Below the pieces are notes generated by a model. It made no database searches, was not told the DNA's origin, and worked only from the letters and a program-made list of their open reading frames with translations. Shown piece after piece: positions 33,951 through 40,908 of a DNA stretch of 64,000 nucleotides (its first letter is position 1; each line of letters starts with the position of its first letter). Source of the DNA: an uncultured Solirubrobacterales bacterium. GTDB lineage: Bacteria; Actinomycetota; Thermoleophilia; Solirubrobacterales; JACPNS01. The DNA lies in assembly GCA_937128795.1 (NCBI GenBank), contig CAKZMQ010000022.1, positions 28,511 to 92,510 of the forward strand, read 5' to 3'. The translations under genes and the position numbers were made by a program.

Positions 33951-34024
33951 CGCGGGGTGGAGCAGTCTGGTAGCTCGTCGGGCTCATAACCCGAAGGTCG
34001 CAGGTTCGAATCCTGCCCCCGCTA
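33951..34024 (+). tRNA. initiator tRNA-fMet (anticodon CAT)
   Basis: A 74-nt cloverleaf can be drawn by hand: acceptor CGCGGGG/CCCCGCT, D arm GAGC-AGTCTGGTA-GCTC, anticodon arm TCGGG-CTCATAA-CCCGA, T arm GCAGG-TTCGAAT-CCTGC. Three G-C pairs close the anticodon stem and there is a C1/U72 mismatch, both initiator hallmarks (the actinobacterial type). CCA is not encoded. Confidence 0.9.
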
Positions 34025-34027
34025 TAC
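33977..34027. repeat. att core copy 1 (attL; 3' two-thirds of the tRNA plus 3 nt)
   Basis: The 51-nt sequence gtcgggctcataacccgaaggtcgcaggttcgaatcctgcccccgctatac is repeated identically at 38473-38523. Confidence 0.85.
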
Positions 34028-34057
34028 AAAACTCCCCGGAAATCTGGGGAGTTTTTT
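34028..34057. terminator. intrinsic terminator (bidirectional) after the tRNA and after the rep-like gene
   Basis: Perfect 10-bp stem aaaactcccc/ggggagtttt, loop ggaaatct, then a T-run. On the other strand it is followed by ttttgtat. Confidence 0.7.
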
Positions 34058-34883
34058 ATTGCGTATTTTCGCGACGTCGACAATCTAACGAGCGATCTAA
34101 CAATCGGTCGTCTCCCCTGTCGGCCGGAAGCGGGTCAAAGACCCACCACGGGATTTCAGTCCCGGAGTAGATGCGGCAGTACTTACCCGCTCCCAAGAGC
34201 GGCTCCCACTCGCATTCACCCGCACCCTCCTGAGCAGGGCCACCAAAGATGGAACCCTCGGCCGGATCGAATGCTGGGGCCGCCGGAAAGTCTCTTGAAA
34301 AGCCGTAGGCGCGTTGCCCTTCCTCAAGGTCGGCCAGCCTGTGCGAGATGTACTTCGAGCAATACCGCGCATGTTCTGGCTTCGCACGTTCGATGAATTG
34401 TTGCGACCCGAAACCGCTCTCTTCAACCAGCTTGCGCCAAAGCTCCAGGTCATCACGAAACCACTTCATGAAGAAGATGCCGTGGTAATGCAACGTGCCG
34501 TTTTCTTGACGCTGAAGCACCCAGCCGTATCCGGCGAGGAGCTTGCGATAGCGCAGCTTTGAGATCAGACGGCGCAAGCATTCGTGGGCCTCCGCCGCCG
34601 TTGGCGCGCGATCCTCCGGGAAGGTCAGCGTTACGAACGCCGGAAACATTCCCTTCGGCGGCTTCTGAATCGCTACTCGAAATCGACCCGCCAACTCCCA
34701 CTGCTTGCGCATCGCGCAGCCCGGACACCTGCGCCATCGCTTGCACGCGACCTCGATCCGTTCGCCGTGATTGGCGCACTCCAACATCAGCGGCGAACTA
34801 CAGACCCATTTCGATGAACTTTTCGCACTTGTTCGTAATAGCTCGCCCTTCGGGCTCGCTTTCAAGGAAACAGTCCTAAACAT
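34056..34883 (-). CDS. rolling-circle (HUH-type) replication initiator-like protein
   Basis: N-terminal zinc-ribbon-like CANHGERIEVACKRWRRCPGCAMRK, an HUH-like motif GTLHYHGIFF and a Tyr motif RYCSKYISH. The assignment rests on motifs only. Confidence 0.5.
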   Translation of the reverse strand: MFRTVSLKASPKGELLRTSAKSSSKWVCSSPLMLECANHGERIEVACKRWRRCPGCAMRKQWELAGRFRVAIQKPPKGMFPAFVTLTFPEDRAPTAAEAHECLRRLISKLRYRKLLAGYGWVLQRQENGTLHYHGIFFMKWFRDDLELWRKLVEESGFGSQQFIERAKPEHARYCSKYISHRLADLEEGQRAYGFSRDFPAAPAFDPAEGSIFGGPAQEGAGECEWEPLLGAGKYCRIYSGTEIPWWVFDPLPADRGDDRLLDRSLDCRRRENTQ

Positions 34884-35250
34884 CGCTTTCGCTTGACCCT
34901 CCGATGTCCGTAGCCGGTGTGGTCCCGGCCGCTGGGACGGGCTGAGGCCCTTCCCAACGCCCTACAACCGAAACGGCCAGACCGAGCTGAAAATGGACGT
35001 AGAGGAGCGTCGAGACTTCCGACACCTTCTGAGAGTCATTGGCGAGCTTCTTGATCTCATCCGACAGGTGCCCTCTGAGTCCGTTCGCGATTCGATCCCA
35101 GTGCCCCCGAGTTTCAGGCCCGAATTCCGGAAACACGCGGATTAGCGAATCCAGATCTTGAAAACGTGCGCGAACCCCGTCGCGTTGCAAATCCCCTAGC
35201 GCCTTGTGTGCGGCCCAGAGATGTACCTGGGCTTGGTCAAGTCCGTCCAT
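34876..35250 (-). CDS. hypothetical protein (124 aa) of the integrative element
   Basis: The ORF overlaps the rep-like start by 8 nt (coupled). No motif is recognised. Confidence 0.45.
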   Translation of the reverse strand: MDGLDQAQVHLWAAHKALGDLQRDGVRARFQDLDSLIRVFPEFGPETRGHWDRIANGLRGHLSDEIKKLANDSQKVSEVSTLLYVHFQLGLAVSVVGRWEGPQPVPAAGTTPATDIGGSSESDV

Positions 35251-35321
35251 GACTAGGACTGTGCCTGAGGTTCGCGAGCCGTGCAGGGTTTTCCACTAAG
35301 TGCCGGAAGATCCGCTTTGCC

Positions 35322-36053
35322 GTGGATCTCACAGAGAGTTACAAGAAAGTGTTTCCGGAAGATGTCCTTGAGCGCTACACGTTCGAGGAGACGCGCTCGG
35401 CTGCTGCCGTTCTCGCGCATACGAACGCGGAGGAGTTCGATCACCTCGTGACGGCATTGAGAGAGTTCGAGCTGATTCCCCGCGATGTCATCGAACCCGG
35501 CAAGAACGAATCGAAGATCGCCGCTCGACTCAATGAATCGTTCCGAAGCCGAGGTTGGCGAGAAGGCCAGTACAACCTCAAGATTTCCTCCCTGCTTCGC
35601 CTAATGCCATACAAACCTGCGGGCGAAAAGAAGGCCATCGAGATTGAATCTGAAGTTGAATCAGCGGGCTACAAGGTGGACAACATCCGCTCCACAGTTG
35701 CGCTTGACGTTGAGTGGAACGCGAAGGACGGGAACCTAGATCGGGACGTAGCTGCGTATCGCTCCCTGTACGACGCGGGATTCATTTCGGTAGGTGTGAT
35801 CGTGACCCGCACGACAGACGATCTCCGAGCGTTAGGCGCGCTCTACGACCGTCCCAAGTTTCTCGGGACCACGACCACTACAAACCTTCCGAAGCTCAAG
35901 CAACGAATGACCCGGGGCGATGGCGGCGGTTGTCCGATGCTGGCAATCGCGATCTCAGCGAAGTGCTTCGACCCAGACGGCGACGGCCACGACGAGCCGG
36001 AAGCGCTCGCCGCCGACAGGGATCAGGTTCAGGCGCTAACCGACGGCGACTAG
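35322..36053 (+). CDS. putative type II restriction endonuclease (BamHI/BglII-like PD-(D/E)XK fold)
   Basis: The core YKVDNIRSTVALDVEWNAKDGNLDRDVAAYRSLYDAGFISVGVIVTR resembles the (V/I)E(V/I)(E/Q)(F/W)GN...RD...(I/V)GV(I/V)I core of BamHI/BglII-type enzymes. It is convergent with, and overlaps, an MT-A70 methyltransferase. GTG start. Confidence 0.45.
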   Translation: MDLTESYKKVFPEDVLERYTFEETRSAAAVLAHTNAEEFDHLVTALREFELIPRDVIEPGKNESKIAARLNESFRSRGWREGQYNLKISSLLRLMPYKPAGEKKAIEIESEVESAGYKVDNIRSTVALDVEWNAKDGNLDRDVAAYRSLYDAGFISVGVIVTRTTDDLRALGALYDRPKFLGTTTTTNLPKLKQRMTRGDGGGCPMLAIAISAKCFDPDGDGHDEPEALAADRDQVQALTDGD

Positions 36054-39657: not shown

Positions 39658-39840
39658 GGCTGTTCCTCCTGAGTGGTTCCTGAGGTCAAGAGCCTGTCAA
39701 GTGGTTCGAGCGGCGTCGTGCACGATCGTCCGAAGTGGTTGCCTGATCCTCCACGATTGCCGTAGTGGCGCCCCAAGAAGGCCTCATTAGGTAGGGGTCA
39801 CGGCGACTCGTGCTGCCTGATCCTGCATACTTACGGTCTC

Positions 39841-40773
39841 ATGTCGGTCCAGTCCATATCCGCACACCCCACCCGCGAGTCGGCGTTGCTGGACCTCGCG
39901 GACCTTGTCGGCGAAAGGCTGGGCGGCGAGGTCGGAGAGCCCCTCCTGAGGCGGCCCTATGACGGACTCCTGCTCCTTTCGCATCGCCAGAGATCCGCTC
40001 GCGTCCCGCAGGTCTACGACCCCGTCGTGTGTTTGGTGGTGCAAGGCGCGAAAGAAGTCGTCGCCGCAGATCGGGTGCACCCGATCACCGCCGGGCAGTT
40101 CCTCGTGGTCACCCACGAAATGCCGGTCGCCTCGCGGATAACCGCAGCCTCCCACGGGGAGCCGTACCTCGCGGTGGTGCTGTCGATCGACACCCAGACC
40201 TTGGTGGAGTTGCAGATGCGGATCGGCGCCACCGGAGCGATGGCGCCGGCGGGCGGTGACGGCTACGCGATGAGCGTCGGTGATGCCGACATCGATCTGG
40301 TCGACGCCTTCACTCGCTGCCTGCGAGCGACCGGCGAGCGCGACGACACCGATGTGTTGCTCCCGCTGGTCTTCCGCGAGATTCACTACCGGCTTCTGAC
40401 GTCGCCCCATGCTGACACGCTCCGGCGTCTCAGCCTTGGAGATACGGCTGCGCAGAGCGTGTCAAAGGCGATTGCACTGATCCGGCGTGATCTCACGGCG
40501 CAGATTCGCATCGGCCTGCTCGCAAAACACGTCGGTCTCAGCACTTCCGCGCTGCACCATCACTTCAAGACCGTGACCGGAACCACGCCGATCCAGTGCC
40601 AGAAGCAGCTCCGACTCCTCGAAGCGCGACGTCGCCTGCAATCGACCGGCCAGTCGGTCTCCGAGGCCTCCTACGCCGTCGGCTACGCGAGCCCCTCGCA
40701 GTTCAGCCGCGAGTACCGTCGTGCATTCGGCTGGCCGCCCTCCCAGGACGTGGGCACCCTCCTCGATAGCTAG
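39841..40773 (+). CDS. AraC-family transcriptional regulator (N-terminal AraC_N/cupin-like domain)
   Basis: C-terminal double HTH: LAKHVGLSTSALHHHFKTVTGTTPIQCQKQLRLLEARRRL...VSEASYAVGYASPSQFSREYRRAFG. Confidence 0.85.
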   Translation: MSVQSISAHPTRESALLDLADLVGERLGGEVGEPLLRRPYDGLLLLSHRQRSARVPQVYDPVVCLVVQGAKEVVAADRVHPITAGQFLVVTHEMPVASRITAASHGEPYLAVVLSIDTQTLVELQMRIGATGAMAPAGGDGYAMSVGDADIDLVDAFTRCLRATGERDDTDVLLPLVFREIHYRLLTSPHADTLRRLSLGDTAAQSVSKAIALIRRDLTAQIRIGLLAKHVGLSTSALHHHFKTVTGTTPIQCQKQLRLLEARRRLQSTGQSVSEASYAVGYASPSQFSREYRRAFGWPPSQDVGTLLDS

Positions 40774-40832
40774 AGCATTCACAGGTGTCGGGGCGTGCGG
40801 CGATCTCATCGCAGACCACTCAGGCCGCCATG

Positions 40833-40870
40833 AACCCGAAGGTCGCAGGTTCGAATCCTGCCCCCGCTAT
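40833..40870. repeat. att core copy 3 (displaced ancestral tRNA 3' end)
   Basis: aacccgaaggtcgcaggttcgaatcctgcccccgctat is identical to tRNA positions 37-74. It is followed by its own hairpin. Confidence 0.8.
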
Positions 40871-40878
40871 TTCGAGAG

Positions 40879-40908
40879 GCCCGGCGATCGCTGGGCTTGT
40901 TCATTCTC
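40879..40908 (+). terminator. probable ancestral tRNA terminator
   Basis: Stem gcccggc/gctgggc (one G-U pair), loop gatc, then the T-rich ttgttcattctc. Confidence 0.4.

Follow-up and report, generated by a model that had tools for sequence, protein, structure and literature searches.

Probable serial integration at the initiator tRNA gene of an uncultured Solirubrobacterales bacterium

Transfer RNA genes can serve as integration sites for mobile elements, and this study concerns one such gene in an uncultured Solirubrobacterales bacterium, where an intact initiator tRNA gene (tRNA-fMet) is followed by two partial copies of its own 3′ part. The window, by which we mean the whole stretch of DNA analysed, is 64,000 nt long and corresponds to positions 28,511 to 92,510 of the forward strand of contig CAKZMQ010000022.1 (assembly GCA_937128795.1). 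The nearest named relatives of the contig are metagenome-assembled genomes (MAGs) of Solirubrobacterales/Thermoleophilia. The three tRNA sequences delimit two intervals, a proximal one that we call E2 (34028–38472) and a distal one that we call E1 (38524–40832). A different element found in the same slot of a sister strain (GCA_041232675.1) is called E2′.

The only tRNA gene that ARAGORN finds in the window is tRNA-Met(CAT) at 33951–34024 (+), which also matches Rfam RF00005 with 65.5 bits. Bacterial initiator tRNAs are recognised by their CAU anticodon, by an anticodon stem whose lowest three pairs in a row are all G-C, and by a mismatch between positions 1 and 72. Read from the sequence, this gene has GGG/CCC, i.e. 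three G-C pairs closing the anticodon stem, together with C1 opposite U72, and is predicted to encode an initiator. A preliminary description of the stretch, made without database searches, had proposed that the tRNA is followed by an exact 51-nt copy of its 3′ part, and a repeat search bears this out: 33977–34027 (+), running from the anticodon stem-loop to the tRNA 3′ end plus TAC, is 100% identical across 51 nt to the direct repeat at 38473–38523 (+; copy 2). A further 38-nt copy at 40833–40870 (+; copy 3) begins in the anticodon loop and matches 33988–34025 exactly; it had been assigned to tRNA positions 37–74, and in fact comprises positions 38–74 plus one flanking T. A 48-nt pattern allowing up to 3 mismatches matched the two long copies only, with 0 matches expected in 100 shuffles. 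Relaxed searches for further core copies covered the 64-kb window only, and found no fourth tRNA copy there, even a degenerate one.

Folding confirms that each of the three copies has its own, different hairpin terminator. T1 (34028–34055), directly after the intact tRNA, folds with −24.4 kcal/mol (z −7.7) and has a clean U-run. It combines a 5′ A-run with a 3′ U-run and is abutted by the stop codon of the rep gene described below, and is plausibly a bidirectional terminator for the tRNA (+) and rep (−). T2 follows copy 2 (38524–38565 (+), folded as approximately 38521–38565) with −26.5 kcal/mol (z −5.7). T3, after copy 3 (40877–40898 (+)), folds with −20.2 kcal/mol, a z of only −2.2 and a degraded U-run.

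E2 is a complete, intact small integrative element of 4445 bp, or 4496 bp including one core copy, with a G+C content of 0.580 vs 0.62 for the window. From copy 2 towards the tRNA, the genes on the minus strand are an excisionase, an integrase, an MT-A70 methyltransferase (convergent with an endonuclease on the plus strand), orf124 and Rep. The presence of int and xis in this interval, already proposed in the preliminary description, was confirmed by profile searches. The excisionase or recombination directionality factor (Xis; 38009–38239 (−)) matches PF12728 HTH_17 (1.3e-10) and TIGR01764 (41.5 bits, cut-off 28.8), and the tyrosine integrase (Int; 36808–38016 (−), 402 aa) matches PF00589 (8.4e-23). 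The true start of the integrase is the ATG at 38016 (the longer open reading frame (ORF) would give 432 aa); the xis stop overlaps the int start, and both genes adjoin the right attachment site (attR). The non-coding stretch between xis and the core (38240–38472, G+C 0.53–0.56) is, from its position, probably the P arm of the element's attachment site (attP), and shows no similarity to the 5′ half of the tRNA. At the other end lies a rolling-circle type replication initiator (Rep; 34056–34787 (−), 243 aa; PF23343 REP_ORF2-G2P, 6.6e-11), whose start codon was taken from the gene call in locus L036 and from alignment to its homologue on L056, a Logan contig discussed below. The E2 Rep matches Rep_1 only below the cut-off, and a faint match to RepSA of pSAM2 (9e-4, also below cut-off) was seen only in the L056 homologue and not in the E2 Rep. 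Next to rep, orf124 (34876–35250 (−)) is a called gene on L036 that forms a singleton cluster and has no match in Pfam, NCBIfam or PADLOC.

The cargo of E2 consists of a BglII-like type II restriction endonuclease (35322–36053 (+); PF09195 Endonuc-BglII, 3.1e-23) and an MT-A70 family type II DNA methyltransferase (36036–36665 (−); PF05063, 2.7e-31; PADLOC MTase_II, 3.1e-87). The two genes are convergent and overlapping, and by the adjacency of endonuclease and methyltransferase genes they are predicted to form a type II restriction-modification system. E2 is strain-specific. The exact 402-aa integrase product is recorded on only 4 contigs, all from the same strain, and each of the five called E2 proteins forms a singleton cluster at 90% identity and occurs only on these 4 contigs. 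By contrast, the alcohol dehydrogenase (ADH) and AraC-family regulator of E1, as well as orf187 and a DUF389 protein, have mates (at least 90% identity) on a 203-kb contig of the sister strain. Nothing close to the integrase was found in viral contigs, nor to Rep among plasmids.

The evidence that carries the interpretation comes from this sister strain, which is conspecific (contig JBERKI010000007.1, 203 kb; loci L040 and L052). It is 98.0% identical to the window in the left flank, 98.3% in the right flank, 98.6% in E1 and 100% in the tRNA. Its gene order is tRNA, the 9871-bp E2′, a 43-nt tRNA repeat, and then TAC, T2, ADH, AraC, copy 3, T3 and orf187. The 43-nt repeat at the right end of E2′ (CTCATAACCC...CGCTAT) begins exactly at the anticodon loop, in the same place as copy 2, after which T2 is kept. 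E2′ encodes a PLD-type nuclease, two N6/N4 methyltransferase ORFs, an integrase, orf163, a DUF3631 protein, the primase-like orf259, an HTH_17 protein, orf173 and a YaaC-like protein, and its integrase is only 28% identical to that of E2. Different elements with the same right junction in the two strains indicate that the slot was hit independently by two unrelated elements within one species. The shared junction also points to tRNA-T2-ADH-AraC-copy 3 as the state before either insertion, the arrangement that the preliminary description had called the intermediate. T1 is absent from the sister strain, where a different hairpin follows the tRNA; hence T1 belongs to E2 and the other hairpin to E2′, each element bringing its own terminator. 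The occurrence of E2′ in an identical slot is the decisive evidence for serial integration, and it supports the earlier proposal that each incoming element supplies a new tRNA 3′ end with its terminator and pushes the older one downstream. In the sister strain, copy 3 differs by a single substitution, which is what a relic free of selection should show.

A more distant comparison is provided by a MAG of a relative with 85% identity (locus L001), found by searching genome contigs with the flanking histidine kinase. It has an identical tRNA followed by yet another terminator, and is without window positions 34032–43563 and hence without both intervals. E2 thus shows the sporadic presence that defines an island, being absent from the 98%-identical sister strain and from this relative. 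The same kinase query found no close relatives in metagenome contigs, and more distant kinase homologues were uninformative, as the Logan contigs that carry them break within the tRNA. The initiator tRNA had been regarded in the preliminary description as a risky target, a view that these comparisons do not support: the window, the sister strain and the 85% relative share one tRNA-fMet sequence (100% identity), and since the regenerated gene is identical, integration costs the tRNA gene nothing. A literature search gave no usable figure for how often tRNA-fMet serves as an integration target.

Taken together, it is highly probable that the 3′ half of tRNA-fMet is a chromosomal attachment site (attB) used repeatedly by elements with tyrosine integrases, with the intact E2 lying on an older layer, E1. 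The tRNA gene acts as attB, and its 3′ part from 33977 onwards is now the left attachment (attL) core supplied by E2, while copy 2 is the attR core and the 3′ end that the tRNA had before E2; copy 3 would be the oldest displaced fragment. In the mechanism that we propose, the E2 integrase would recombine the 51-nt attP core with the chromosomal tRNA gene, with a crossover presumably in or near the anticodon loop. Integration would rebuild a perfect tRNA from element DNA together with the new terminator T1, and would leave the former 3′ end and terminator (copy 2 and T2) at the far end of E2. By analogy with pSAM2-type elements of actinomycetes (PMC2440964), Xis and Int would reverse the reaction, and the circle so released would be replicated by the rolling-circle Rep. 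As cargo, the BglII-like/MT-A70 pair would protect the host and make the element more stable. Before E2, the locus would have read tRNA-T2-ADH-AraC-copy 3-T3, a state most likely derived from an older integration (E1, 2.3 kb) that lost its recombination genes. The cores begin at the anticodon stem (51 nt, E2), at the anticodon loop (43 nt, E2′) and within the loop (38 nt, copy 3), which fits the anticodon-centred class of integration. This class accounts for about half of the islands in Islander (PMC4383910).

Two explanations would remove integration from the account or remove the stacked arrangement itself. The partial copies might stem from a tandem duplication of the tRNA gene, with the 5′ halves since lost to decay; they are indeed direct, co-oriented and 3′-anchored, and nothing further speaks for this origin. 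However, the 26–37 nt upstream of the fragments align to the tRNA 5′ part no better than shuffles do (an equal or better score was reached by fractions of 0.66, 0.12 and 0.97 of the shuffles), the fragments start at the anticodon stem-loop, which is the typical start of integrase cores, and int, xis and rep lie within the intervals. Two 98%-identical strains, moreover, differ completely in the proximal interval. Detectable tRNA 5′ halves under relaxed alignment had been named beforehand as one finding that would overturn the integration model, and there are none; the shuffle-tested alignment and the strain comparison together refute a tandem duplication, to which we attach next to no probability. 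The other explanation is that metagenome mis-assembly fused contigs of different strains at the repeated tRNA sequence and so created a false stack. The window does derive from a metagenome contig, and in relatives the short-k-mer Logan contigs all stop within the tRNA. Yet an ENA metagenome contig of 216 kb (ERZ650162 NODE_61) matches the window with 99.995% identity, and the gene order is identical in a second assembly from another sample (ERZ928089 k127_85326). The same order in two independent assemblies, from different samples and assemblers and with one k-mer (k=127) longer than the 51-nt repeat, makes mis-assembly at the repeat unlikely, and a separate NCBI genome assembly, that of the sister strain, shows the same E1/copy 3 structure within one 203-kb contig. 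With the second assembly and the sister-strain contig in agreement, mis-assembly was rejected as very improbable.

The nature of the distal interval is a closer call. E1 contains a zinc-type alcohol dehydrogenase (38647–39657 (−); PF08240 and PF00107; 99.5% nucleotide identity in the sister strain) and, divergent from it, an AraC-family regulator (39841–40773 (+); PF06719 and PF12833). Beyond copy 3 lies a stretch of low G+C content (40871–41912, 0.546) with orf187 (40976–41539 (−)), which has no family match, is present in the sister strain and is absent from L001; this stretch is either the right flank of the hotspot or a remnant of a still older element. At 2.3 kb, bracketed by copies 2 and 3 and absent from L001, E1 fits an old island stripped of its integrase, and we lean slightly towards this reading. 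The rival to it is that there was one true integration, that of E2, on native DNA. ADH-AraC would then be the ancestral right neighbour of tRNA-fMet, and copy 3 with T3 (and the low-G+C stretch of orf187) would be the left-end relic of an E2′-like element, produced by secondary-site insertion to the right of AraC or by rearrangement.

A number of observations weigh against two layers of integration, some of them bearing on the decayed island in particular. The preliminary description was right that the distal interval holds ADH and AraC and no recombinase, since profile searches found none within 38524–40832; its decayed island is plausible only, in view of native-like G+C, conservation like that of the flanks and the contexts of ADH-AraC in two other loci. 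E1 is as conserved between the two strains as its flanks, its G+C content of 0.656 is native-like or higher and does not look foreign, and only approximately 60 nt separate the AraC stop from copy 3, leaving no room for a P arm. The lowest G+C content of the region is instead that of 40871–41912, and T3 is homologous to the terminator supplied by E2′ (score 31 vs a shuffle mean of 12, reached by 0/500 shuffles), so that T3 may be element-derived rather than ancestral chromosome. ADH-AraC also lies just downstream of tRNA-fMet-derived sequence in two further lineages, L054 and L059, without the same repeat structure and with terminators of two unrelated families. In L054, where ADH-AraC is 87% identical, a terminator homologous to T2 comes after an intact tRNA-fMet that has a compensatory T-stem change, and no tRNA fragment corresponding to copy 3 is present on the right of AraC. 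In L059 (91% identical), the ADH stop adjoins a terminator of the T3 family and, with it, a decayed 3′ fragment of tRNA-fMet (reverse complement 50–130); this contig is short and ends before the position where copy 3 would lie. The bases directly upstream of copy 3 (GCCGCCATG), judged by eye, also bear a faint resemblance to the anticodon loop region. More generally, all data are metagenome assemblies. The excised circle, the empty site and the intermediate site were none of them observed directly, the intermediate being deduced from the two strains, and the E2 attP junction (38472 joined through the 51-nt core to 34028) was not found in viral contigs; the site restored by excision would read tRNA 5′ half plus core plus TACGTGGAAACGCCC.

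Against a native ADH-AraC, on the other hand, 40909–43700 has no homology to E2′ beyond the terminator, in DNA or protein, and the window has no fourth fragment, nor anything else that could be the right end of such a relic. L001 is without ADH-AraC beside its tRNA, and distant homologues keep the two genes paired in unrelated contexts with no tRNA nearby, which implies that the pair has moved at least once. The T3-like terminator and decayed tRNA fragment to the left of ADH in L059 are not predicted by a native pair either. On this balance we consider a single integration on native DNA rather unlikely, and keep the preference for E1 as a decayed island.

T3-type terminators are found in an element (E2′), in a relic (copy 3) and beside ADH in another lineage (L059), and the terminator travelling with the tRNA fragment may be a mobile module that passes between chromosome and elements. 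As a further observation, the L054 and L059 loci have two unrelated terminator families swapping places at the hotspot. In L054, a 2.65-kb insert sits between the tRNA-fMet terminator and ADH and is flanked by a 66-nt direct repeat of the terminator (6488–6553 and 9141–9206, 91% identical); it contains orf208, DUF1697 and orf424 and no integrase. The Logan contigs L041, L042, L046, L053 and L054 all terminate within tRNA-fMet, at tRNA positions of about 22–37, as would be seen if the genomes of those relatives also had repeated tRNA fragments, or a second copy of the gene.

Tandem integration into one tRNA gene is already well documented, and the locus represents an ordinary, described route for the uptake of foreign genes. 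In Streptomyces avermitilis, a 44-bp att site separates AICESav3728 from AICESav3708, which occupy one tRNA-Arg gene in tandem (PMC2440964), where the window has 51 and 38 nt, and Islander lists 125 tandem arrays of two or more islands among 3919 islands (PMC4383910). As in the arrays of Islander/TIGER, the window has 3′ fragments, one for every island, that lie behind an intact tRNA and in its orientation; the gene split by an island is restored by it, and the cores are anticodon-centred. Unlike these precedents, the target is an initiator tRNA and the host is an uncultured member of the Thermoleophilia/Solirubrobacterales. E2 has both the co-oriented downstream 3′ fragments and the tyrosine integrase within the interval by which Islander recognises an island. 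The Islander rule for tandems needs an integrase and a fragment for each member, and E1 has copy 3 but no integrase; the locus therefore works like a tandem array and is formally one island plus a possible remnant.

E2 also resembles the integrative and conjugative elements of actinomycetes (AICEs) in its actinobacterial host, its tyrosine Int and Xis module, and its integration at a tRNA 3′ end, and its rolling-circle-type Rep may correspond to their RepSA- or RepAM-type replication module. It differs in size (4.4 kb vs 9–24 kb for AICEs) and in its restriction-modification cargo. Profile searches found no FtsK/SpoIIIE-type Tra (among ORFs of at least 55 aa), Pif/Nudix or Kor regulator in E2; lacking such a Tra, E2 cannot transmit itself in the way that AICEs do and falls outside their definition.

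Small defence islands borne by integrases are known at tRNA-linked hotspots in Enterobacteria, in the form of P4-like and other mini-integrative elements. The window is similar to these in that one hotspot carries different small integrase-bearing elements in different strains, with variable anti-phage cargo. It differs in host phylum and in having no capsid-hijacking or helper-phage gene, and its replication modules are also different, with a rolling-circle Rep in E2 and a primase-like protein with DUF3631 in E2′.

The nearest relative of the E2 integrase (48% identity) is on L056, a Logan contig of 4980 bp. This contig has the order xis-int-orf-orf-rep with orf285 and a methyltransferase, and its Rep and Xis are 51% and 45% identical to those of E2. 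Both of its ends lie in 3′ parts of a tRNA-Arg(ACG)-like gene. The kinship of E2 and L056 points to a family of elements of approximately 5 kb with Xis, Int and Rep, exchangeable restriction-modification cargo and different tRNA targets; type II restriction-modification cargo is present in E2, E2′ and L056. We would suggest only tentatively, as a possibility with the balance somewhat against it, that E2 and L056 represent an undescribed family of minimal (4.4–5 kb) integrative replicons in uncultured Thermoleophilia. Such replicons would comprise Xis, Int, a rolling-circle Rep and a swappable restriction-modification cassette, without genes for transfer or packaging, and would jump between tRNA targets (fMet, Arg) and contend with unrelated elements over a shared slot; the terminator beside the tRNA fragment would be a mobile module in addition. 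The two T-arm copies at the ends of L056 (1–4980) were seen to differ by a compensatory base pair, which places the crossover upstream of the T arm.

The locus leaves the current view of how such elements work unchanged. Its value lies in a clean, sequence-resolved case of hotspot turnover, in which strains of approximately 98% identity carry unrelated elements, each with its own restriction-modification genes, in the same slot and above an older shared layer. It also brings an uncultured actinobacterial order within the tRNA-island paradigm, and offers two candidate integrase/att pairs (with 51-nt and 43-nt cores) as possible tools.

Several minor features of the surroundings were also recorded. 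In L001, the ORF after the tRNA terminator (5365–5709 (−), equivalent to 8896–9240 of the reverse complement, L001rc) ends in frame with the last ~37 residues of a collagen-like protein, and its start is, by eye, what we take to be DUF1428-like; the ORF is either a deletion fusion or a MAG chimera. On the upstream side, L046 (73–2685), in which the histidine kinase is 76% identical, has a gene for an 870-aa fibronectin-III-repeat protein between the kinase and the tRNA, an insertion that shows this side of the tRNA to be variable too. Further upstream in the window, a large glyoxal-oxidase/cadherin-like gene contains internal tandem repeats of approximately 230 nt (26500–27900; 65–73% identical), seen as off-diagonal BLAST hits. 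To the right of orf187, 41913–43682 (+) encodes a 589-aa collagen-like protein (PF01391, 2e-49), with a 9-bp periodic Gly-X-Y repeat at approximately 42273–43250, a G+C content of 0.70–0.74 and a strong GC skew. In the sister strain the protein is 631 aa long, and one metagenome contig is broken off within this repeat.

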